DNA of 64,000 bases from a virus, in the IMG/VR virus record IMGVR_UViG_3300043466_001759, positions 1 through 64,000 of that record. One strand, 5' to 3'. Shown piece by piece: positions 3,785-40,088 of the stretch (positions are counted from its first letter, which is position 1; each line of letters begins with the position of its first letter). A model generated the notes under the pieces. That model saw only the letters and a program-made list of their open reading frames with translations, did no database searches and was not told where the DNA came from. A program made the position numbers and the translations under genes.

Positions 3785-3837
3785 TACGCATCTCACCACG
3801 TCGGTGAGACGGTGACACTCACTTGGAGATGAGACAG

Positions 3838-4278
3838 ATGAAGGGTTTTTGGTACAACGTGACGTTCGTTCGGGGCTCCTCCCGCAGGTCTTACGCGGTC
3901 TCGGCCGCCTGCATCGGTAATGCCAAGGCTGCTGCATGGTGCCGTCTCGAGGATACTGAGGGCACTCGCGAAGGGTGGTCACTCGTGATGGTTTCTGAAT
4001 TCAACAGAGGTGAGACCAGCTTCGCTAAGGCAGGAACGCTGGTTGCATGCATTAAAGATGGCGCAAAGCTGTCTGGCAAAGTTATCAGCAATGATAGCGG
4101 CAATCTTCTGATCCAATGGCGAGACTTTCCCCATCCGATTTCGTACACCCCGTTTCAAATCATGGACATGGGGATCACGACTGGCGAGCACACAAACACG
4201 CCGGTTCAAAAAAAGTTCGAGCCAAGTGAGCAAAGCGACTGGTCGTATCGTCGAGCTGAGGCTGGATACGGCCAGTAG
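3838..4278 (+). CDS. Hypothetical protein
   Basis: ORF 3823..4278; GGAG before ATG 3838. Confidence 0.65.
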   Translation: MKGFWYNVTFVRGSSRRSYAVSAACIGNAKAAAWCRLEDTEGTREGWSLVMVSEFNRGETSFAKAGTLVACIKDGAKLSGKVISNDSGNLLIQWRDFPHPISYTPFQIMDMGITTGEHTNTPVQKKFEPSEQSDWSYRRAEAGYGQ

Positions 4279-4332
4279 GCTCGGTGGGGTTAGGCCGAGT
4301 GCGGCGAGGGAATTTTTCTCCCTCGCGTCCCC
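4279..4332 (+). ncRNA. Structured RNA motif copy 1 (putative pseudoknot)
   Basis: gctcgg-t-GGGGTTAGG-ccgagt-GCG-hairpin-GTCCCC; three copies with covariation. Confidence 0.65.
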
Positions 4333-4382
4333 AGCTGACATCGAGTCAGCACAATCATTCAAACGCAAAGGGAATTTTGCAA

Positions 4383-4766
4383 ATGTTAACTAACTTTACA
4401 TCAGCTATCGAAGCTGCAGCAAACGGCCGAAAACGGCTCCAGAAGGCTGGCGAGACTCGTCAGGCGTATTTGTCTCGAGCTCGACGTGCGTGCCGTACAG
4501 TGTTCTATAAACTGGCTGCAGATTGCGAATACAAGCGATGCCACACTAGCTTCCTGGTTCGCGACACTCTACTGGTCGTTGAACAATGGTTTCCAGATCT
4601 CGGGACTTTTGGTGTTGAATACATCCCAGCTGGCCGAGGCGCAAGATCTCCCGAGGTGACGTACCTCAACACTGGCGACACCTACGAGCTAACGATTCTC
4701 TACATTCGAGGACGATTCAGAGTGGGCTGCTGGGGCGATATCGTCGAACGTGGCAACTACAACTAA
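4383..4766 (+). CDS. Hypothetical phage protein
   Basis: C-terminal YLNTGDTYELT...WGDIVE motif; start refined from 4284. Confidence 0.7.
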   Translation: MLTNFTSAIEAAANGRKRLQKAGETRQAYLSRARRACRTVFYKLAADCEYKRCHTSFLVRDTLLVVEQWFPDLGTFGVEYIPAGRGARSPEVTYLNTGDTYELTILYIRGRFRVGCWGDIVERGNYN

Positions 4767-4789
4767 CACGCGACACAGGGGATTCAGAG

Positions 4790-5614
4790 ATGTTTGATAG
4801 CAACGGGTTTGAAATTAAATCTTGCGGTCGATGTGGCGGATCAGGCAGGCACTCGTACTGCGAGAGATACGGTGATCGATGCTTCGAATGTGGCGGAAAA
4901 GGAAACGTTTTCACTAAGCGAGGCGCTGAGGCTCACCGGTTCTTTTCGGATCTTTTCGAGGTTCCTATCGAGACGATCAAAGTAGGTGATTGGGTAAAGC
5001 TTACTGGCTACACAAAGGCGAAAGTCTTAGCAGTCAAGGAAAGCATTCAACGCGGATCATCGAATGGTGTTCCTTACGAGTCGCCGGTTGTCGTGTTGAC
5101 TATCAACACTTCCACAGGACTTCTTCACTCCTCTAACTTCAAAGGATCGACAGTCAAGAAGCTCGAGAGTGAATCGATTCATGCCGAAAGGTTGGTCGCG
5201 GCGATGGAGTATCAAGCGACGTTAACCAAGCAGGGAAAGGTCCGCAAGGTTCGAAAGCCTGTTGTGTTGCTCGACCTCGACAAGTTCCTTACTGGATACA
5301 TCGAATGTGCGCTGTGGTCATCAACCGATGATAACGATGAGCCATTGGACTTGTATGACGAAGACGACATCGATCCAACGGTGCTCGAGACAATGAGAGC
5401 GGACTGCCAAGACTTCATCAAGTCTAACGCAAAGCTGCTTAACGGACTGGACGCTGCACAATGTGGACATGACTTCTGGTTAACCCGCAACAGGCACGGC
5501 GCTGGGTTCTGGGATCGAGGCCTTGGAGATGTTGGTCAACAGCTCACTGAGGCATGTCGACCATACGGCGAATTCAACCTCTACGAAGCTGAAGGGGTGA
5601 TCCATGGCCAGTAA
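4790..5614 (+). CDS. Phage protein with N-terminal CxxCxGxG zinc finger and C-terminal GHDFWLTRNxHGAGFWDR domain
   Basis: CGRCGGSG and CFECGGKG repeats (DnaJ-like Zn finger); conserved-looking C-terminal motif. Confidence 0.75.
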   Translation: MFDSNGFEIKSCGRCGGSGRHSYCERYGDRCFECGGKGNVFTKRGAEAHRFFSDLFEVPIETIKVGDWVKLTGYTKAKVLAVKESIQRGSSNGVPYESPVVVLTINTSTGLLHSSNFKGSTVKKLESESIHAERLVAAMEYQATLTKQGKVRKVRKPVVLLDLDKFLTGYIECALWSSTDDNDEPLDLYDEDDIDPTVLETMRADCQDFIKSNAKLLNGLDAAQCGHDFWLTRNRHGAGFWDRGLGDVGQQLTEACRPYGEFNLYEAEGVIHGQ

Positions 5615-6935: not shown

Positions 6936-6980
6936 ACTCGGAGGGGTTAGGCCGAGTGCGGCACCTTCGGGTGCGTCCCC
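6936..6980 (+). ncRNA. Structured RNA motif copy 3
   Basis: actcgg-a-GGGGTTAGG-ccgagt-GCG-gcacc(TTCG)ggtgc-GTCCCC. Confidence 0.65.
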
Positions 6981-7024
6981 AACTGACATCGAGTCAGTTA
7001 TCACGTTGCTATGGAACCAAGCGA

Positions 7025-9197: not shown

Positions 9198-9206
9198 AGA
9201 ACTAAT

Positions 9207-9379
9207 GGCTTGTCACGGCAATGCCAGTCTAGGCGGGATAAGTCCTGGCGTGACGTGGCAAGGCAAGGCAAGGCAAGGTTTCATGCATCGGCTGAAAAGT
9301 CGGTGCGTGGATTTACTGCGGCCCGGCGAGACGGAGCAAGTCGCGATCGGGCATGGCGTAGCATGACGAGGCAAGGTTT
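9207..9379 (+). ncRNA. Pentamer-periodic guide-like array block A (units 1-2)
   Basis: In-phase 5-mers ggctt gtcac ggcaa tgcca gtcta ggcgg gataa gtcct ggcgt gacgt ggcaa x4 ggttt; hairpin 9282-9309; second unit 9310-9379 ending ggcaa ggttt. Confidence 0.85.
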
Positions 9380-9446
9380 CAACTGCTATCAGCGAGGCAG
9401 TTTTTAAGTTCGCTGAAACATGGTTTTGTGCGTTAAGGATTTCAGT

Positions 9447-10004
9447 ATGAAGAAGGCAATTTGCAAATTACAGTCAGTCAGTCCGTATTCTCAATCGAGG
9501 TACATCCAAGAGAAAAGAACGCGAGACGAAACGCCAGCAGCGTTCGAAGAGCGATCCTGGAAGCAACGGTGCCATTGGAACGAAAATGGCAATCTTTACA
9601 TTCCTCCAATGTCGTTCAAAAACTGCTTGAGTGAAGCAGCAAAATACAAATCCATTCAGATCCCAGGAAAGGGAAAGTCGACATACACCAAACACTTCGA
9701 GGCTGGGATTCTTGTTGTCGAGCCTCTAGTTCTCGACATTACGAAAGACAGTATCCAACACGAATGGCTGCACGTCCCCTCTGACGGCAAGCGTGGAGGA
9801 ACAAAGCGTGTTGAAAAGTGTTTTCCGTTGATTCAGTCTTGGTCTGGCACTGTCGAGTTCTTGGTGTTGGATGAGACTATCACTGAGGATGTTTTCACAG
9901 CACACCTCCAAGACGCAGGGAGCTTTATTGGTATCGGTCGCTTCCGTCCGCGTAACAACGGCTTTTACGGTCGTTTTGAGGTAAAGTCGGTGAGTTGGAA
10001 ATAA
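9447..10004 (+). CDS. Stand-alone Cas7/RAMP-like RNA-binding protein (VIPR-like effector candidate)
   Basis: LYIPPMSFKNCLSEAA resembles the RAMP IPGSSxKG motif; C-terminal Gly-rich loop GIGRFRPRNNGFYGRFEV; TAAGGA RBS before ATG 9447; flanked by the periodic arrays. Confidence 0.8.
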   Translation: MKKAICKLQSVSPYSQSRYIQEKRTRDETPAAFEERSWKQRCHWNENGNLYIPPMSFKNCLSEAAKYKSIQIPGKGKSTYTKHFEAGILVVEPLVLDITKDSIQHEWLHVPSDGKRGGTKRVEKCFPLIQSWSGTVEFLVLDETITEDVFTAHLQDAGSFIGIGRFRPRNNGFYGRFEVKSVSWK

Positions 10005-10007
10005 TCC

Positions 10008-10447
10008 GGCAGGGTTAGGCTTTGCGCGTCGCGGCTCGTTGCGGCGTTGTGCGGCAAGGCAAGACAAGGTTTCATGCATCAGCTGAGAAGTCGGTGCATG
10101 GATTGACCTCGGCACGTCTCGTTGGTGCAGGGCAGGGCCCGGCGTGGCGCGGCTAGGCAAGGCAAGGCAAAGTTTCACATCTGAGGCGAATAGGCTCAGG
10201 TGTGAATTGACCGTGGCACGGCGAGGCATGTTATGACTCGGCGCGGCAAGGCAAGGCGAGGTTTCCTATCTGGGGCGAATAGGCCTAGGTAGGGATTGAT
10301 TAGGGTTTGGCTGGTCGGATCACGACAGGTCGGGGCTCGGCTAGGTAAAGCAAGGCAAGGTTTCACAGCTGGAGCGAACAGGTCCAGCTGTGGATTGGAC
10401 TCGGCATAGTAGGCCGAGGCGGGGCGTGGTAAAGCAAGGCAAGGACT
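10008..10447 (+). ncRNA. Pentamer-periodic guide-like array block B (units 3-7)
   Basis: Five phased 5-mer tracts (10008-10072, 10101-10175, 10205-10264, 10294-10363, 10393-10447) separated by hairpins at 10073-10100, 10176-10204, 10265-10293 and 10364-10392. Confidence 0.88.
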
Positions 10448-10470
10448 TTTTTACAAAGGGAACAAAGGGA

Positions 10471-10947
10471 ATGTTATTTGAAAAATCATCAGACACAAAG
10501 ATCTTAGAGGACACGCTTAGGCAGGTTGCAGTAGGTGACATGGCCACTTACGAAAACCTGTCAAAAGCAATTGGAAGGGACGTTCGAACGTTTGCGATCG
10601 CTGCACTACGTACAGCCCGACACGGACTCATTAAGGAAGGGTTCGTGTTCGGCGTCGAGCAGAATGTCGGACTCGTCAGGCTTAACTCTACAGAGATCGT
10701 CAAGAGCACAGAAATGGATCGAAAGTCGGTGCATCGAAAGGTTAATCGCACACTCAGCAAACTAAGCGTTGCGAAGTACGATGAGCTCGATGACGAGAAT
10801 AAAAGAAAACACGTCACGATGTCAGCGCAGATGGGTGCTCTGGCGATGTTTTCAGCGAAGACGGCAACCACGAAGATTGAATCTAAAGTCACTGGCGACT
10901 CGAAAGTATTGCCAGTCGGCGAAACACTGAAATTGTTTGGTGGGTAA
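10471..10947 (+). CDS. Array-embedded accessory protein, putative N-terminal winged HTH
   Basis: GDMATYENLSKAIGRDV...ALRTARHGLIKEGFVFGVEQNVGLVRL resembles a wHTH; the upstream ORF extension is array sequence. Confidence 0.7.
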   Translation: MLFEKSSDTKILEDTLRQVAVGDMATYENLSKAIGRDVRTFAIAALRTARHGLIKEGFVFGVEQNVGLVRLNSTEIVKSTEMDRKSVHRKVNRTLSKLSVAKYDELDDENKRKHVTMSAQMGALAMFSAKTATTKIESKVTGDSKVLPVGETLKLFGG

Positions 10948-10956
10948 ATACAACAC

Positions 10957-11170
10957 GGCGGGGTTGAGCCGGGCGAGTTAAAGCCAGGAGCGGTGCAGTA
11001 ACGCAAGACAAGGTTGCTTGTCGTGAGCGAATAGGTCACGACAAGTATTACGCATGGCACGTCTTCACTTGAAACGGCGGGGCGATGCGAGGTGGAGCGT
11101 GTCGGAGTAAGTCTCGACAGGTCGCCACAAGGCAAGGTTGCTTACCACGAGCGAACAGGTCGTGGTAAGC
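10957..11170 (+). ncRNA. Pentamer-periodic guide-like array block C (units 8-9)
   Basis: Tracts 10957-11016 and 11046-11140, each followed by a 10-11 bp hairpin with a GCGAAYAGG loop. Confidence 0.85.
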
Positions 11171-11199
11171 ATTTATAGATCTCAATCGGAAAGAACACG

Positions 11200-11861: not shown

Positions 11862-12353
11862 ATGCTTGTATTAGGAAGAAAAGTCGGAGAGTCAATCACT
11901 ATCAACGGCGATACCGTGGTAACAGTAAAGAAGCACAGCAGCAAGATCTTTTTGGCGATCGAAGCTCCCGATGACGTATCGATCAAACGAACAGAATTAC
12001 TAACCATAAAAAGAGACGATGAAACAGATATCAAAGCTATCTTACGATTGGATTGTCGCTCTCAGGAATTCCCTAGCGAAGAATGGTTGCAGTCACTCGG
12101 ATTTGTTATCAACGAATCTGAGCATGCTCTTTTTGCTACAGCATTACTGGACGACTTCTCGGGCAATTGCCATCCTGCGCGTGTCGAGCTCAGGCTTATG
12201 CTTTTTGCCGATCAGACTGACGAGTGGGTCACTGACGTTGTGTCATACGATGCAAGTGGGACTGCGTCTTCAGTTGGTCTGGTAAACTCCTGGTGCAAGA
12301 CCAAGGCTGATGTCATTCGACTTGGCAAAGCCCTCGGTCTTAAAGCTTGGTGA
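11862..12353 (+). CDS. csrA: CsrA-like carbon storage regulator domain fused to an unknown C-terminal domain
   Basis: MLVLGRKVGESITINGD...LAIEAPDDVSIKRTEL matches the CsrA consensus. Confidence 0.8.
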   Translation: MLVLGRKVGESITINGDTVVTVKKHSSKIFLAIEAPDDVSIKRTELLTIKRDDETDIKAILRLDCRSQEFPSEEWLQSLGFVINESEHALFATALLDDFSGNCHPARVELRLMLFADQTDEWVTDVVSYDASGTASSVGLVNSWCKTKADVIRLGKALGLKAW

Positions 12354-21625: not shown

Positions 21626-21651
21626 ATCAACCTCCTGAAAACAAAAACCAG

Positions 21652-21726
21652 TGGACGGACAGGACTCGAACCTGCCTCTGCGACATCGCCCAACAGTCGC
21701 CGCTAAACCATCTCAGCTACTCGTCC
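21652..21726 (-). tRNA. Degenerate tRNA / tRNA-like element with an 11-nt anticodon loop
   Basis: GGACGAG TA GCTG-AGATGGTT-TAGC G GCGAC-TGTTGGGCGAT-GTCGC AGAG GCAGG-TTCGAGT-CCTGT CCGTCC A. Confidence 0.65.
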
Positions 21727-21733
21727 GCTTGTC

Positions 21734-37400: not shown

Positions 37401-40088
37401 GCCACGAATCTGAGCTGTCCTCTCCTTGTCCTCGACAAAACTGCCGTTCTGCATCTTTCCGACACGAACGACTGGAGCCCCTCCACGAGGATGCCAAGCA
37501 TTGTCCAATACGGACTTGTTGACTCCCCTTCCTCCACTCCAGTCTCTTACTCTCGCTGAGTAGTTCTTCCATATCTTGGAACCGAGGCCTTCACCGCCAG
37601 TTGCTCGCCCTGTACTGTCGACCAGCCCAGCACCTTCTGACGTTGTCCATGGATGAGACATGCCGCTAATCATCACGGTAGTGTCGCCATCCTCAAACCC
37701 CATGCCTCGCATCTCTTTTTCCAAGCTCGAGACGCCCTCAATGGTTCTCTTTTCACCAATCAAGTTACTCTTAGATCTTTCGTACTGGTCTTTATACCGA
37801 GCGTCACTCTTTCTTACTGGACCACCCTCAGAGCCTTTAAACAACTCTTGACGTTTCGACTCTATCTCATCTTCTGAGAGCTGATAGGAGTCTGCCGCAG
37901 GAACATCCTTTGCATCGGACGACTTCGCAGCCGACTCAGCCGGAACAGAGGCCTTCTGACTTGGGAACGCCGTTCTTGCCTGTTCCCATTGCTCTCGCCT
38001 TTGATTCTCGTCTGGTGCTTGCGATGCATTGGAGTCATCACCAAAGATGATCTCTGACCACTGCTCGGGACTAGGTGCACTTTCTAAGCCAGCAAATTTC
38101 CGACGTATCTTGTCATACTCTTGCTTGTCTGATGGGTTATCAAACACTGGCTCTTCCTGCTTAGCTACTGACGTTGCGTCAGCTGGCTTTGATCCTGTGC
38201 CTTCACTCGAAGATCGCTGTAGCTCCTCTCCTCCGTCCTTTACTTTCTGATACACATTCCTGGCTGCATCCATACTTGAATGCTCGCTGGAATAGATCTG
38301 CTTACCACTCCCAGTTTCAACAGAACGAACTACCCACTTCTTTCCGTCTTCAGACTCAAAGAGCTCGTGGCGAACACCATTGTCAAGTTCTGTGATTTCA
38401 TCAAGCTTCTTTGCTGGCTTTCCGGCGATCGACACCTTCTCGTCACCGCCGACTGCATCACTTAGCGGCTGGCTTACTGGCTGACCGGTAGGAACAGGCC
38501 CTACTTGGCTTTCGGCCTGGGCTGCTTCTTCTGCGACTGGCTGGACTTCTTGCCTGCCTTGGGCTTGGATTTCCCCGCCTTGAGGCTCGCTTTGGGGTCG
38601 TACGGCATTCTGTTCTCCTTGGTCGACTTCTGGTGGACCAGCAGGCAATGACTGATCAGACGAAGCCTGAGAGGCCCTGTCATTTATGAGTTTCTGTCCT
38701 GCCTCCCACTGCTCTCTCCGGACATTTGCATTGGGAACTGTCTTGTCATCACGAAGACCGGGATCACCCAGTACGATCTTAGCCCACTCGCTACGGCTTG
38801 GGGGCTCTTTAAGGCTTCCTATCTGAATCGATATGTCATCTATTTTTTGTTGGTCTTCAGGACTTACCTCATCAGCCGATTGTTTTGCAACAACCTCTGC
38901 GTCGTTTCCAGTATTGACGTCACCAGTCGGAGCAGGCGACTGGCCGACTGGCGCGATTGCGACCCCTTCAGCAGGCAGCTGATCAACCACTTGATCGTCA
39001 GGAACCTTCCTTCCTGTTCTTTTACCGACAGCGGCAGATAATCCACTTTGTGCACCACTGATTACGCCACCACCTAAAGCACCCGCAGCCGACGCTTCGA
39101 ACCATTTCATCCAGGTTTCTCGATCCGTAATCTTGTGATTCGGATCAACTATCTCTGCATTTATGCTCTGCAGCATCTCCTGGAAGCCCTCCTGGACGCC
39201 TTCCGAGCCAGAGCTCTTTACAGCGTCCCACAGATAAGCAGCTGCCGCTTTATTCCCAGATTGCTTTGCTATTTCGCCAGCGCCTATCTTGTTGATGAAT
39301 TTCATCAAAGACGGGGTCGCTCCAAATGCAACTTCGGATGCTCCAGATACTTGACCTAACAACAGTGCTGTAAAAGGACTGTCGATACCCTTCTCTCTTT
39401 GTTCGCCATACATGCCACCGCCTTCATGTAAAGCTGTGACCTGCTGGGAGGCGACTGCACCGCCAGCCTTTTTAGCTAAAGAATTGTAAACAAGCTTCTT
39501 GGCGGATTCCTCTGCAACTTCTTTTGTAGCTCCTCTGATTACATACTCTTTAGCTATGTCCGCGATCTTTTTCTTAATTGCTGTTTTTCCAAGAAAGCCA
39601 GTGATAGCACCGACAGGAACAGTAGCAACGTCAGCAGGATCAGGACCAGGAACCAACATAGAACCCGCTGCTGCACCAACGATCCCAGTACCAACAGATT
39701 CTGCTATAGATGGAGCTAACTCCCCTAGAGTACCAGCTGCCCATGTTGCCATGTTTCCAGGGCCTGCCATAGCACCTGTCTTTTCATCAGTAGAAAAGAA
39801 GTCTGTGACTGTCTTTGGGTTTTCAGACGCCTGCTCCATTTCCTTCTGATATTTTTTGAAACGTTCTCTAGCTGCAGATTCATTGCCCATTGCGGAGTGG
39901 TACGCGGCAATACCACCGTGATAGGTAGCCTGCGTCTGGTCGATGCCTCGCAGCAAACCTCGATACGCTTCGCTTCTGTTTTTTAAGTTGTCTTGAGTTC
40001 TTACCGCAGACTCTCTCTTGATCCTCATCAAAGAAAGTTGGTCAGCGAACTCTCCGTCGTCCATAACATCAACTTCAGGTGTTGCCAT
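25500..40088 (-). CDS. Giant polyvalent internal virion (ejection) protein, 4862 aa
   Basis: Hydrophobic Gly/Ala N-terminus; HEAFH zincin motif; TMDLWWSR; HDAFGH; GNAT-like block; two ART-like FKKWFGD...YHGT...GYDGV...KSATxNxGxFD domains. Confidence 0.9.
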   Translation of the reverse strand: MATPEVDVMDDGEFADQLSLMRIKRESAVRTQDNLKNRSEAYRGLLRGIDQTQATYHGGIAAYHSAMGNESAARERFKKYQKEMEQASENPKTVTDFFSTDEKTGAMAGPGNMATWAAGTLGELAPSIAESVGTGIVGAAAGSMLVPGPDPADVATVPVGAITGFLGKTAIKKKIADIAKEYVIRGATKEVAEESAKKLVYNSLAKKAGGAVASQQVTALHEGGGMYGEQREKGIDSPFTALLLGQVSGASEVAFGATPSLMKFINKIGAGEIAKQSGNKAAAAYLWDAVKSSGSEGVQEGFQEMLQSINAEIVDPNHKITDRETWMKWFEASAAGALGGGVISGAQSGLSAAVGKRTGRKVPDDQVVDQLPAEGVAIAPVGQSPAPTGDVNTGNDAEVVAKQSADEVSPEDQQKIDDISIQIGSLKEPPSRSEWAKIVLGDPGLRDDKTVPNANVRREQWEAGQKLINDRASQASSDQSLPAGPPEVDQGEQNAVRPQSEPQGGEIQAQGRQEVQPVAEEAAQAESQVGPVPTGQPVSQPLSDAVGGDEKVSIAGKPAKKLDEITELDNGVRHELFESEDGKKWVVRSVETGSGKQIYSSEHSSMDAARNVYQKVKDGGEELQRSSSEGTGSKPADATSVAKQEEPVFDNPSDKQEYDKIRRKFAGLESAPSPEQWSEIIFGDDSNASQAPDENQRREQWEQARTAFPSQKASVPAESAAKSSDAKDVPAADSYQLSEDEIESKRQELFKGSEGGPVRKSDARYKDQYERSKSNLIGEKRTIEGVSSLEKEMRGMGFEDGDTTVMISGMSHPWTTSEGAGLVDSTGRATGGEGLGSKIWKNYSARVRDWSGGRGVNKSVLDNAWHPRGGAPVVRVGKMQNGSFVEDKERTAQIRGVLEEALNFSQAKPSDKKSTDTTSAPKESKKSMGRENKLNAKSSESVPPPSKTGSTPPLLPKSATPPPLKQRTSSGDKSPAQVEAKSSDAVSVEPVRNQEDKDAPQTKRGGDPSEVQTEERREGQTNAQTKAEGQVSPEKPEGQATAGTPSSDSSSSKQKEAPKPPARPKRDSNEASKPKEESRKKAVAEKYLNELSPGQREAIAKSLTESLGTEVTVNDLVNNPGLVDAIVAISPARKSKTKPKKAASSRNRQAAKEDVPKQLGNVTLVSSEELSDDEKQQVKILDKMGVSMRFVNGRDLSLPGLFRPSTMTIWINRNYVTNMNRERGENSKWMTWGLFAHEAFHAMKVGNPEAWNQLYNWVSKHESSKEQDGLKKAGEDYIGDFDRELLSSVRADIKRSGKAVDVDKDVSGQDLLKAALKAGLKYDIFNKDGSLKEKGDLSQKTKDLSDFINEFNSNEDIRQEESLSRYLEDRAGDFDFWNELGNSKPGLLAKIGRWLRKALRFAEPDTLAGQVRLAIESAMESNGISPSSGGRASPARSSENQDSEASRVAEIRESARSATPDEHDALIAIANKHSKRDFVKSDITPSRIKNLKSNGLVVGSKLTPEGLDRLRSWDKKRKQAIAREAKLAGVDPDMAVYGLRVEKNKPWLLTEDIISNGIDTSLIPQDLEARSDSQKNNLKRTKWDVAQWLQSLYKKASGHSLSPNSKHSKSAKARMANQLAKEALHALKMDWAEGAIGWYNEKVTGALDHMADIFPEIVAPGKHQMMFKAALAISSDGQDVLPNFRMAVEIYERWKKTGTLSGWGHRSGVESSLDTMDKLVKKFGWERVEAFLATPLTAAQLSKHGFTVEDGIDPSISISKESFKVGGELVTARVYGSMIFGAKIGSFYNNLNYRFDTITMDLWWSRTIGRLRGKLESVNVENAQKSIDNGLRKNLSDKYLKKFGMSREDVARNDRAALRYARMLKSHNASVFTSTAISSYVSAIKKADELGSIENGSIQQFAPVDPSKLNANEKKFYGQLSEKIGNSKVAGKVSSESIAGMARDAIARRTEVNTTEFKAAKNVVVNAYGLYEIAKSGKDREVQREVAELAIKQVKEVIGKDITKADFQALMWYYEKELWGKLGLSKEIEKLDYEQAAKKVSQEHRASKRDGRRESISSGQRVSPEATGRAQSTVQSGEDAGSGRELDGGEYAGSGADGTRAGVGRQRPESAGDGRGRKDLRKNSPLAGSPSVPGINGPDPEVVAVAERYAKENGIDLKRQAEYVQVDPERAKRIADAYEQMAHAPQDPKVKAAYKELIRQTTAQYKALEDAGYKFWFMDLNVPSNAEYASSPYNALRDLRQNKQMGVFPTSDGFGTSDLDVNDNPLLEDTGIKWPSGGLDGQMKPVTANDLFRAVHDAFGHSLEGAGFRARGEENAWQAHVRLFTGDAVGAITSETRGQNSWLNYGPHGDKNRTAKVEDTTFADQKTGLMPEWTWTEGRAADYSETTDRESTDGTTEKDGSEDRSRKTRERAAVAKRSGREATATIRSRVGSNGRAWSRSEESRTLGGYGVVATYEADAAEWADVGVAAPSFVELQKSEKSASQFTAAINAARESQGKLGASVYVYPEQDYRDMRLFLTEDGKAGFALKDSGEAGVVDIVSVFNTANNAHRGVSYSMMRLAVEEGGNTLDAFDTFLPVLYSANGFRVISRAKWSDEFAPSGWSKEEYSDFNNGEPDVVFMAYDPQRTDIYRHNSGEGKAFDDIDEAVRSQRSAAIENATALDSRDLNSGLRYAIARPELAKELDKGETVTLYRAMTMIDGNLYPPMSSKINDGKKLSLRKPEPVGKWMVAEERPDLVPKTGKYAGKFPLKKPKGTTWAAYAPYFHASPIPLNDQFTASWYNDGVKRPKMVIVEVEVPASEMTSGYQAEGSSKKVGSNKWTAGVVASKLPGGREVVLSRYLRIKRIVPDAEVAKKIADIVNPSRLSIPENTVTPQLRAELEKNGVRISPKGTKGESIRYSPSRQVDSPAFKKWFGDWENDPENSSKIVWNGQPLSLYHGTKRDFNVFEGKAKTSTDGGYYGKGYYFTTDSEGAGRYAGRGDGSRILEVYVDIKNPAIINDTYRDNTADALSMSGGKLDYVDAKVAKVFNDVYDGDPTSHLDPEKSIEITKRLKEAGYDGVIVNQSDLPFAEVVAFDSSQIKSATGNRGTFDKFDPDIRYSPSRQDEMFAKLMKAMEERGLAKPGQSSLPETTGTKYARTEGQRKSVGDSPREWFGPRKVKDRQKKAIAELAANPGRPYEIISEMNAKPRPLTDMEDAILNARIRELKNEGDISGSDRKEWLDLNRTVQRGHSEWGYAGHAAQAELASDFSVEGLTRQHTSHVEADPSPEQIAKYAEMAERIDKLEAETAALAEKLAKEAIARKKAEAASVPKTDPPREKIGTKRATLMKKVADGFAAFQNAWGGGSSGRAAVSRSAITNVNGFGFGTDTLPDPSTVSRDEWLRAYMPLIMKAIPESKLSDEDIAVLGTVFGDENPFKADSKLMRMFSKWTVQSDLQERNWAEGVQALFRDRSRGTRMMLEQIASESGVEFDEDRFSDPSDYKALANSFVKYLPKYVSSNPDIGSEVTNLLDASKVILDPLEYAIKAWEDAQGGAGGSQIDTAAFKKWFGDSKVVDEDGNPLVVYHGTNEKFSVFESGRTSQRSVMLSSFDVETSGFFFSPSEDDARQYGKNVLPVYLSVQNRLMDPKVIGISSRSSEEVKAASAKAFEDAEYILEPMIYEEGGKRWIDTGGGVSNTEVDSDGDWINEIFIDGMIDWHALDNPKVVERMKERGYDGVKVYEENDGSGESWFVVESSQVKSATSNTGDFDKTNPDIRYSPSRQGTDIKSAADSIVNALREMGVSSVLELESQVKANMPNVTLEQMSVIKDAWAESNSKKKVESPIGDDPEPSAIGARAKELMTLAIEAGYGATNETWREVVDVVHAQLSIEVPGISEYDTMQAMSDYGSWRPLNKEEIAVKTRAIRGKTRQSLKIEDTIKAIAQSEEWLKNGVSPEEVARRLRDQNLLPKSTGREQPTPDSIERDLIAEFNKLKKELPVSTESREGQLKSALSTAKTAGKNRLEMLSKDIEALEEAIESRTVLARSVNDRTPLKPDAELASIRSQLEAKRKQRDDLKTEYEKIFPRSKKQRMLSAEQQTQRALKAIEKLKEKLQQVKDGKEVDSTKKPSLVAAEVQSQLKMWQDRLRAARQAAAEAEQGRYDDDGGAIPAQGGRKPMTEEQRLAMAERMLQSQIDDIKADTKSLTDGTWAPAVKGKVPTSSVLESLRAQLADLRKVRDEARKASPVYQAREEAKYWERYRKGQERRLAFWEKRRDEAKSGILPVPRNKRTITEEDILDKNLEIEKIKYEAMYEIEKAKRATWNAGQWMQYGLLEATSLIPKTLMLGMELSFFLRQGFFYSRSHPVRAFMAAVEAIPAVWSQRLALASVESLESRPNAKEYLQAEVEFTKKDGPRAQLEEMYQSAVIRWLENTKTPWLLPFRAWVGAYGAFERGNRTFANIMKADLYDIQKRDTLAAREFFGTNMEWTDSDIKEAGRITNIFSGRGTGLRGGSPWLDFFFLARRWTWSRIQADFILPLQLATPSWIGQWNADRGMRVSLAKLYIQTLMGHATKMAMGYFAYSLLAGDDEEKEPTIEWDPRSSDAWVMKVGETRFKDDGGLMPAVVLASRLLTGTIKTSSGEIKSIYGEDVQYGGKTGADFLINFARYKLGTGPASILEWVSGKDAVGRNIAKEGDPLAVPKHIIGSRLTPLTWKEIAAAEKELGVVSGTLASLEAFFGVSVSTYGPRTEYSGASDEEKKELFDKDLRGMKWDDKDLAYSDSLSGSQKKQARDAQQKKKQSLVYAASANPSRKNYKSDQAYKDAVTSRDEYMKTLKKSGISMTEARRLLIEHWEDNYGSAKETKKGVVVYKEGLSLRLRQLRKVFTN

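Follow-up and report, generated by a model that had tools for sequence, protein, structure and literature searches.

What ends and separates the repeat units that fill three intergenic blocks of this phage genome, and to which RNA do the hairpins between them belong? The window analyzed is a 64,000-nucleotide stretch (positions 1 to 64,000) of the IMG/VR virus record IMGVR_UViG_3300043466_001759, and the repeat units, tails and two genes of the locus described below lie on its + strand. The source record is 72,858 bp long, has direct terminal repeats and is rated complete, so the locus is carried by a phage. No DNA similarity was found to GenBank phages; by protein, the sole GenBank phage match was LESphi2 (E 1e-6), and matches in the ESM Atlas were to unnamed viral clusters only. 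The part of the locus under study (9198–11199) comprises nine units in three intergenic blocks (A, B and C) placed around two genes, which are referred to here as vipr (9447–10004) and the vap-like accessory gene (10471–10947).

An earlier note on this DNA had reported separators with a common loop, GCGAA(T/C)AGG, on five differing stems. The motif GCGAAYAGG was counted six times in the 64-kb window, a number reached in 0/100 shuffles; five + strand copies lie at 10186, 10275, 10374, 11027 and 11151, and the sixth (37113) falls within a large ORF. Each of the five is flanked by complementary arms, as claimed. By loop search, folding and covariation, the hairpins were placed at 10174–10206, 10263–10295 and 11015–11047 (loop GCGAAUAGG; tails of units B2, B3 and C1) and at 10362–10394 and 11139–11171 (loop GCGAACAGG; tails of units B4 and C2). 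The proposed pairing is present but the proposed stem length of 10 bp is too short: pairing between the flanking UU(U/G)C and G-N-A extends the stems to 12 pairs, and an inner C-G pair adds one more. Two further hairpins carry GNRA loops, GAAA at 9280–9311 (tail of unit A1; 14 pairs, −20.8 kcal/mol, z −7.9) and GAGA at 10071–10102 (tail of unit B1; −16.0 kcal/mol). These loops were correctly identified before, but the GAAA stem is longer than the 12 bp given and the second hairpin contains an A.C mismatch.

On the + strand the fold energies of the seven hairpins range from −16.0 to −22.9 kcal/mol, with equal or better folding in 0/200 shuffles for each; on the − strand each is weaker (−5.2 to −19.2 kcal/mol). 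The fold energies favor the + strand as the functional RNA for all seven, as had been proposed, and are consistent with the G-U pairs. Covariation of the GCGAAYAGG class was scored on nine sequences (five from the window, two from relative L010 and one each from L027 and L177). Pairing was found in 116/117 cells, both sides had changed in 10/13 pairs, the covariation score was reached in 0/500 shuffles, and sliding the partners dropped pairing to ≤43%. For the GCGAAYAGG hairpin, structure, covariation and strand are established. The claim that the separators covary holds for this class, with compensatory changes at those 10 of 13 pairs, but cannot be carried over to the GNRA class, for which covariation is undemonstrable from three sequences: one double and three one-sided changes were present, and the score was reached by 332/500 shuffles, making it indistinguishable from them. 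What supports the GNRA class is its folding energy and the slide control. The related claim that structure rather than sequence is conserved is correct in that the stems vary, but the loop and the stem base are also conserved in sequence.

Both separator classes exist, but a division into two is incomplete. Unit A2 ends in a third tail form, a candidate H-type pseudoknot of 7 + 7 pairs (9381–9419) just upstream of vipr, a geometry also found with different sequence in relatives L177 and L046, whereas unit B5 lacks any structured tail. A structured 3′ tail is therefore present in 8/9 units (seven hairpins and one candidate pseudoknot, with B5 as the exception), and three tail forms (GCGAAYAGG hairpin, GNRA hairpin and candidate pseudoknot) share one locus with one vipr.

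The sequence ahead of each tail is a tract of 10–18 pentamers in a single YNNGG register, which was set by the last repeat ahead of each tail, and the tracts end in invariant CAAGG repeats. In this register 62/121 pentamers are well-formed YNNGG; the other four registers together hold 2, and the background is 0.02 per position. Block A consists of A1 (9198–9278; 16 in-register pentamers, 8 well-formed, the last four CAAGG) and A2 (9312–9376; 13 pentamers, 6 well-formed). Block B, which begins directly after vipr, consists of B1 (10005–10069; 13 pentamers, 8 well-formed), B2 (10103–10172; 14, 9), B3 (10207–10261; 11, 8), B4 (10296–10360; 13, 7) and B5 (10395–10444; 10, 6); after B5 come a U-run and then the beginning of the next gene. 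Block C consists of C1 (10948–11013) and C2 (11048–11137). Several tracts are degenerate, with 5/13 pentamers well-formed in C1 and 5/18 in C2. The nine tracts have 5–9 well-formed repeats apiece on the same strand as vipr, where at least four tandem YNNGG define a vrRNA. Units abut, such that the next tract begins within ~7 nt of the preceding hairpin. That the hairpins delimit individual guides, as first suggested, agrees with these positions, since each of the seven ends a YNNGG tract in a VIPR locus. Guide units are present between the hairpins, but they are phased pentamers and not contiguous spacers.

VIPR, whose first description dates from 2026 (bioRxiv 10.64898/2026.04.26.720920), silences DNA in a CRISPR-like manner. 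According to that preprint, a vrRNA consists of 9–16 YNNGG repeats followed by a structured, invariable 3′ tail, and targets are read under a 1-nt skip rule; in phage SUSP1, one Vipr protomer binds per repeat and a 3′ pseudoknot caps the RNA and filament (see also bioRxiv 10.64898/2026.04.26.720927). The VIPR preprints also state that a shared tail renders a vrRNA competent for Vipr loading. VIPR comprises seven types, and experimental work has covered two clades, those of SUSP1 and P. fulva (type II). Vipr itself is a small protein (~20 kDa) of RAMP fold, built from an RRM core, a G-loop and a thumb, and a VIPR system further includes a vap accessory gene beside vipr and vrRNAs of ~100 nt to which Vipr binds.

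The vipr gene of the window, whose start is likely 9447 rather than 9420, encodes a minimal RAMP protein of 185 aa whose G-loop lies close to the C terminus, where a conserved glycine-rich motif is found. A profile of 27 homologues was searched against the PDB and matched 36pp_D, annotated as "SUSP1 Vipr protein" (E 4.2e-17). The same profile matched the SUSP1 genome (KT454805.2) at 28492–28959 on the − strand (E 5.4e-19), where GGYNN arrays lie on both sides of vipr and on the same strand as the gene, and it also matched LESphi2 gene P21_9 (E 3.7e-25), upstream of which arrays with short hairpin tails are located. Identity between the window protein and SUSP1 Vipr is ~23%. An AlphaFold model (pLDDT 94.4) gave 127 PDB fold matches at E ≤ 0.001, the best of them, beginning at E 2e-8, to type VII Cas7, Csm3, Cmr and gRAMP subunits. 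No Pfam family was matched, and the PHROGs match was to phrog_4652, of unknown function. Homology to SUSP1 Vipr and, as predicted by the model, the RAMP fold are established. This is the only vipr in the 72.9-kb genome and the sole RAMP gene detected there. The 158-aa accessory gene is kept beside vipr in relatives; homologues were found in 66 fetched sources, and a complete + strand open frame was delimited in 56 of them. Its similarity to the gene downstream of SUSP1 vipr (vap1) is weak both by BLASTP (E 0.22) and by hhalign (probability 56%, E 1.1e-4). Because tail-ending YNNGG tracts flank a gene with homology to SUSP1 Vipr and a Cas7/Csm3 RAMP fold, positions 9198–11199 very probably form the part of a phage VIPR system that codes for its RNAs, and in this system the hairpins would be the structured 3′ tails of vrRNAs.

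The resemblance to SUSP1 lies in a conserved structured element with covariation support that immediately follows the last YNNGG of a unit of ~100 nt, is on the same strand as vipr and, in SUSP1, occupies the 3′ end of a one-protomer-per-repeat filament; the A2 tail in the window shares the H-type pseudoknot geometry as well. The window differs in having plain 12–14-bp hairpins in 7/9 units, with either a conserved 9-nt loop or a GNRA loop, in units that abut without a spacer, and in three tail forms for one vipr. Pseudomonas phage LESphi2 (OQ594955.1), which we take to be near the P. fulva VIPR clade, likewise has, upstream of a Vipr homologue, GGYNN tracts that end in GGCAAGG and, after them, short hairpins whose stems differ; however, its stems are 4–6 bp with tetraloop-size loops and further downstream structure, and the GCGAAYAGG loop is missing. 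In class 1 CRISPR systems, the guide is bounded by a stem-loop (the Cas6 handle) that stays on the mature RNA and has a constant repeat sequence. In the window, too, guides are delimited by stem-loops, which would serve a RAMP-based filament as handles, but its stems vary and covary, phased pentamers replace contiguous spacers, and a single RAMP gene was detected. Instead of the constant direct repeats and unique contiguous spacers of a CRISPR array, its separators share the loop and stem base only. Some VIPR arrays are described in the first preprint as hammerhead-interspersed, with separators between adjacent vrRNAs marking unit ends (bioRxiv 10.64898/2026.04.26.720920). Separators mark unit ends in the window too, but no ribozyme was found there, and a nuclease of the host or the phage would be required to separate the units. 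Searches against Rfam returned nothing at gathering score in the window, and matches in the array region and in L010 were at chance level.

By analogy with SUSP1, each pentamer would be bound by one Vipr protomer to form a helical filament, in which the protein would hold the GGY bases while the NN dinucleotides would read double-stranded DNA with one base skipped per repeat, and the structured tail at the 3′ end would act as filament cap or anchor. We infer RNP formation, capping and DNA silencing at this locus from the VIPR papers, and a filament-capping role for hairpin tails would be an extrapolation from the SUSP1 pseudoknot. Because the next tract begins so close to the preceding hairpin and a promoter scan found no sigma-70-like site between units, individual units would have to be released by cleavage from a longer + strand RNA; the base of the hairpin (UU(U/G)C ... 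G-N-AUU) would then also be a likely site of processing and 3′-end protection. Of the roles first offered for the hairpins, namely cleavage sites, filament caps or sites for an accessory protein, any one may apply here. Target searches under the 1-nt skip rule, run over the genome and ~1.2 Mb of loci, gave best matches equal to those of shuffled controls. Allowing 0–3 skipped bases, skip 3 returned only the loci themselves, and two exact target patterns (units B3 and B2), searched against viral contigs with no mismatches tolerated, gave 0 matches.

Relatives were collected through the Vipr protein and by scanning for the hairpin. In the fetched loci, GG-phased tracts were found on the vipr strand in 64/80 and on the other strand in 13/80. 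The pattern scan of viral contigs yielded 2 real hairpins among 22 matches (L010 and L027), and that of metagenomes 2 among 21 (L177 and L163, the latter a repeat of L010); the remaining 19 were paired at 1–7 of 9 positions. A covariance model (R1) searched over 140 sources found, beyond its 7 training sequences, both GNRA hairpins (31–32 bits) and L010:566–614. Four short, weak matches (E 0.38–0.99) were also returned by this model. The GCGAAYAGG hairpin accompanies Viprs 86% (L177) and 27% (L010) identical to that of the window, and is absent from relatives whose Vipr is 79%, 77% and 75% identical (L046, L047 and L048). As judged from these sequences, the hairpin type does not track Vipr phylogeny. 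Such a mismatch would be unexpected if Vipr alone reads the tail. In L027, two tracts with the same hairpin are present and no vipr was found in the 17.9-kb fragment (estimated 32% complete), and in L010 no tRNA was called by ARAGORN. Satellites carry solo vrRNAs (bioRxiv 10.64898/2026.10.15.759431), which make use of a competing phage's Vipr; the L027 fragment resembles these in that no vipr accompanies its tracts within the incomplete sequence, whereas the window has a vipr of its own.

The position of the hairpins bears on two other readings. Were the hairpin the 5′ handle of the next unit rather than the 3′ tail of the previous one, a last tract with no hairpin after it would be accommodated, and this is seen in five blocks (A and B of the window, L027 and both blocks of L010). 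We nevertheless consider this very unlikely: no hairpin precedes the first tract of any block, what comes after the final hairpin of block C is the start of a gene and not a tract, and the SUSP1 tail lies 3′ (bioRxiv 10.64898/2026.04.26.720920). The pentamer register is moreover anchored to the downstream hairpin, which sits exactly where the phased tract ends; the tract-hairpin junction is invariant, and the sequence past the hairpin varies. The same exact placement of every hairpin at a tract end speaks against ordinary early-operon mRNA elements (intrinsic terminators, attenuators or stabilizers) unrelated to guides. Their location between + strand genes would suit such elements, and the first stem of the A2 tail (9381–9402) with its U-run was flagged as terminator-like; yet the terminator scan scored 0/7 hairpins, none of which is followed by a U-run, and nine differing stems from four contigs all share the 9-nt loop and the conserved base, making this reading highly improbable.

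Action at the DNA level, as cruciforms, N4-type single-strand hairpin promoters or iteron-like protein sites, is scarcely credible. A giant protein of 4862 aa and the direct terminal repeats first suggested an N4-like phage, but the protein carries the ADP-ribosyltransferase domain of polyvalent proteins (ART-PolyVal) and no RNA-polymerase family, and the G.U and U.G pairs make the folds strand-specific, so N4-like hairpin promoters were dropped. A reading of the GGCAAGG/TTGAC motifs as sigma-54 or sigma-70 promoters was also discarded, their spacing being wrong and the promoter scan at chance level, and readings of the repeats as G-quadruplexes, Shine-Dalgarno-like repeats or a TRAP-like ring binder were superseded by VIPR. 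An unlikely reading, compatible with VIPR, is that the GCGAAYAGG hairpins are sites for a CsrA-like protein and the arrays wholly or partly a Csr/Rsm-type sponge or CsrA-controlled leaders. The phage encodes a CsrA-like protein at 11862–12353 (CsrA domain, Pfam E 8.6e-12; PHROG CsrA-like regulator), only 5/140 profile-search sequences carry a CsrA-like gene, one being found no more than ~1 kb downstream of the arrays in each of the window, L010/L163 and L027, and the loop presents AYAGG in a hairpin, loosely resembling CsrA sites. Those sites, however, have GGA in the hairpin loop, and GGA is found in neither the GCGAAYAGG nor the GNRA loops; no Csr/Rsm RNA was found by Rfam. L010 and L027 are related phages, which leaves at most two or three independent co-occurrences, the L177 contig has the hairpin but stops before any CsrA gene could show, and L069 and L134 have CsrA-like genes without the GCGAAYAGG hairpin. 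The VIPR context already accounts for a structured element at the tail position.

Within the VIPR assignment, the GCGAAYAGG hairpin might be a portable tail module that has not co-evolved with Vipr and is read by a second protein, with the CsrA-like protein as a candidate; this second protein would control how some of the guides mature or are loaded. Alternatively, the hairpin might let these guides use a competing phage's Vipr, in the manner of satellite solo vrRNAs. This proposal, which we hold to be rather doubtful, is based on the mismatch with Vipr phylogeny, the three tail forms in one locus and the CsrA-like gene beside the hairpin in 3/4 lineages.

This locus from an uncultured phage shows a different way to end and separate guides, by a covarying hairpin of fixed loop and stem base that directly abuts the following guide, with a candidate pseudoknot tail alongside. 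It provides material for asking what a tail needs for Vipr loading, how units are processed without ribozymes or individual promoters, and whether tails may serve as compatibility tags among phages that compete. A covariance model of the tail, used together with YNNGG phasing, detects arrays that are missed by CRISPR tools.

The record is a complete virus of 72,858 bp with direct terminal repeats; the window covers its initial 64 kb, and the first 15 kb of the window consists of small genes on the + strand. Hairpin features are carried here by three intergenic stretches, block A (9198-9446), block B (10005-10470) and block C (10948-11199). The loop GCGAAYAGG was found in six copies in the window, a count reached by 0 of 100 shuffles, and five of these were located on the + strand in blocks B and C. 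Of 30 matches to words similar to GGCAAGGCAAGG, 19, + strand in every case, co-clustered with the loop copies (5.95 expected), and each loop copy was flanked on both sides by complementary arms. GNRA-loop hairpins, each with a 14-pair stem, were located at 9280-9311 (+) and 10071-10102 (+). Folding energies on the + strand ranged from -16.0 to -22.9 kcal/mol for all seven hairpins and were matched by no shuffle, and the - strand folded more weakly for each. The hairpins reported in the earlier note therefore exist as described, except that its 10-bp stems were confirmed in pairing and not in length: pairing of the flanking UU(U/G)C with G-N-A lengthens the GCGAAYAGG-class stem to 12 pairs and an additional inner C-G pair.

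To find relatives of the GCGAAYAGG hairpin, viral and metagenome contigs were scanned for its pattern, and the arms of each match were checked for pairing. Most matches were chance, with unpaired arms (20/22 in viral contigs), or showed pairing at only 1-7 of 9 positions (19/21 in metagenome contigs). True relatives were found in contigs L010 (two copies), L027 and L177, with L163 being a repeat of L010. The resulting nine sequences had nine different stems with 116 of 117 cells paired and both-sided changes in 10 of 13 pairs, a score reached by 0 of 500 shuffles; pairing with slid partners, used as a control, was at most 43%. U.G and G.U pairs were frequent in this class and the folded strand is therefore the + strand, as had been proposed. 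For the GNRA class (n = 3, two from the window and one from L177), a double change was observed once and a one-sided change three times, a signal reached by 332 of 500 shuffles, so covariation, claimed earlier for both classes, was borne out for the GCGAAYAGG class and was not demonstrated for the GNRA class, whose hairpin structure is plausible. An Rfam search of the window, the array region and L010 matched no family.

Elsewhere in the early region, a second intergenic repeat was present in two copies (4276-4350 and 6936-7010, +). Their flanks are identical, and the hairpin that these enclose differs wholly in sequence and keeps its self-complementarity; this repeat may be another structured RNA. 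A tRNA-Pro (GGG) gene was located at 21650-21728 (-). Domain search of a 4862-aa ORF at 25500-40088 (-) detected ART-PolyVal, an ADP-ribosyltransferase domain of polyvalent proteins, at residues 2929-3089 and no RNA-polymerase family.

To set the pentamer register, each inter-hairpin stretch was divided into groups of five, starting at the last GG ahead of the tail and working in the 5' direction. In that register 62 of 121 pentamers were YNNGG, compared with two in total across the remaining four registers and a background of 0.02 per position. Every tract was closed by invariant CAAGG repeats. Nine units of 10-18 pentamers were delimited (A1-A2, B1-B5 and C1-C2), ending in the seven hairpins, a candidate pseudoknot (A2) and a U-run (B5).

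This organization is that of VIPR, which the original preprint describes as a phage-encoded minimal RAMP protein (Vipr) with an accessory gene (vap) and vrRNAs of about 100 nt, composed of 9-16 YNNGG repeats and an invariable structured 3' tail; the NN dinucleotides read dsDNA with one base skipped, and array architectures vary among seven types (10.64898/2026.04.26.720920). In the companion reports, cryo-EM resolves a helical filament with one protomer per repeat and a 3' pseudoknot capping the RNA (10.64898/2026.04.26.720927), and solo vrRNAs, having the common tail, are competent for Vipr loading (10.64898/2026.10.15.759431). DNA targets that obey the rule of one skipped nucleotide were not found in the genome, about 1.2 Mb of loci or two exact-pattern scans of viral contigs.

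Blocks A and B are separated by a 194-aa ORF that probably starts at 9447, giving a 185-aa protein (vipr, 9447-10004, +) encoded once in the genome. A profile of 27 homologues matched PDB 36pp, 'SUSP1 Vipr protein' (E 4.2e-17), LESphi2 P21_9 (E 3.7e-25), upstream of which arrays and short hairpins are present, and 28492-28959 (-) of the SUSP1 genome (E 5.4e-19), where GGYNN arrays lie on either side on the same strand, in agreement with 10.64898/2026.04.26.720920. The AlphaFold model (pLDDT 94.4, pTM 0.87) resembled type VII Cas7, Csm3, Cmr and gRAMP subunits (127 chains at E ≤ 0.001). Viral contigs yielded at least 141 relatives, and genome contigs, whose assignments span many phyla, a further 20; GG-phased tracts were present on the vipr strand in 64 of 80 fetched loci (opposite strand, 13/80). 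The 158-aa gene downstream (10471-10947, +) resembled the SUSP1 downstream gene weakly; it is conserved beside vipr, homologues having been obtained from 66 fetched sources, in 56 of which a complete open frame could be delimited. The locus is thus a VIPR system, a kind already described. In alignments read by eye, the G-loop was G-R-F-R-P-R in the window and G-D-W-R-P-R in SUSP1, and the position matching SUSP1 H17 was apparently S or Q in the window's clade and H in L010; these differences suggest that the guanine-reading residues given in the cryo-EM preprint are not conserved in the clade.

The hairpins could be 3' tails of the preceding units or 5' handles of the following ones. Under the handle reading, the first tract in each block should have a hairpin before it and the final hairpin of block C a tract after it, and neither was observed; moreover, the tract-to-hairpin junction was invariant, whereas the sequence 3' of the hairpin was variable. 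Because of these block ends and the invariant junction, the 3'-tail reading is favoured. Window hairpins and the SUSP1 tail alike lie directly 3' of the last repeat, and the earlier proposal that the hairpins delimit guides was essentially right. As tails, they may also mark processing sites: consecutive units abut and a sigma-70-like scan of the region found no promoter-like sites between them, which argues that the units would have to be cut out of a longer transcript, and the conserved stem base would then be the likely site of cleavage and end protection. The G-N-AUU at this base is invariant and presumably resembles the RNase E preference, which we take as a lead. Sigma-70-like matches in the region were at chance level in number; the sole + strand match near the arrays (9/12) was at 9976-10005, at the vipr 3' end before block B.

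To the two hairpin classes described earlier, both of which are present, a third tail form was added by unit A2, whose tail, at 9381-9419 (+), can fold as an H-type pseudoknot with 7 + 7 pairs. The same geometry was present in the unit directly upstream of vipr in L177 and L046 (Vipr identity to the window 160/185 residues and 79%, respectively), with 5-7 pairs in stem 1, a 1-nt loop, 7 pairs in stem 2, no second loop and 6-7 nt in the third loop. Comparison of L177 with the window showed one exactly compensated change per stem; pseudoknots of at least 11 pairs occurred in 14 of 200 shuffles of the A2 tail. Among relatives, the elements after tracts varied from A/U-rich runs to short and longer hairpins. 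Directly after a repeat tract in L010 (1441-1560, +), an element combines an acceptor-like stem of 8 bp with a perfect T-arm-like stem-loop; neither ARAGORN nor Rfam called a tRNA in this element, which may be a tRNA-like processing signal ending a vrRNA. The repeat consensus was mostly GGC, with GAC in L048 (GACNN at 3795-3890 and 4365-4460) and L134 (5800-6000) and GGT in L078 (GGTNN at 3895-4985). Given that the Vipr of L048 is 75% identical to that of the window, the fixed trinucleotide changes faster than the protein.

The distribution of the GCGAAYAGG tail is at odds with the Vipr phylogeny. The tail accompanies a Vipr sharing 86% identity with that of the window in L177 and one sharing 27% in L010, and it is absent from L046, L047 and L048 (79%, 77% and 75%). 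It was also present in L027, though no vipr was found within this 17.9-kb fragment; two tracts and one GCGAAUAGG hairpin (5200-5350, +), candidate solo vrRNAs, directly precede a CsrA-like gene of 60 aa there. In the window, a CsrA-like gene with a C-terminal extension of about 110 aa (11862-12353, +; Pfam CsrA E 8.6e-12) lies some 700 bp downstream of the final hairpin. Of the 140 sequences searched, only 5 had such a gene; CsrA-like genes lie just downstream of hairpin-bearing arrays in the window, L010/L163 and L027; since L010 is related to L027, independent co-occurrences are few. The discordance between tail and Vipr, together with the CsrA-like neighbour, motivates and does not establish a reading in which the GCGAAYAGG hairpin is a portable module that does not co-evolve with Vipr and is perhaps read by a CsrA-like protein. 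The tail architecture of this locus is distinctive and may be of interest to VIPR researchers.
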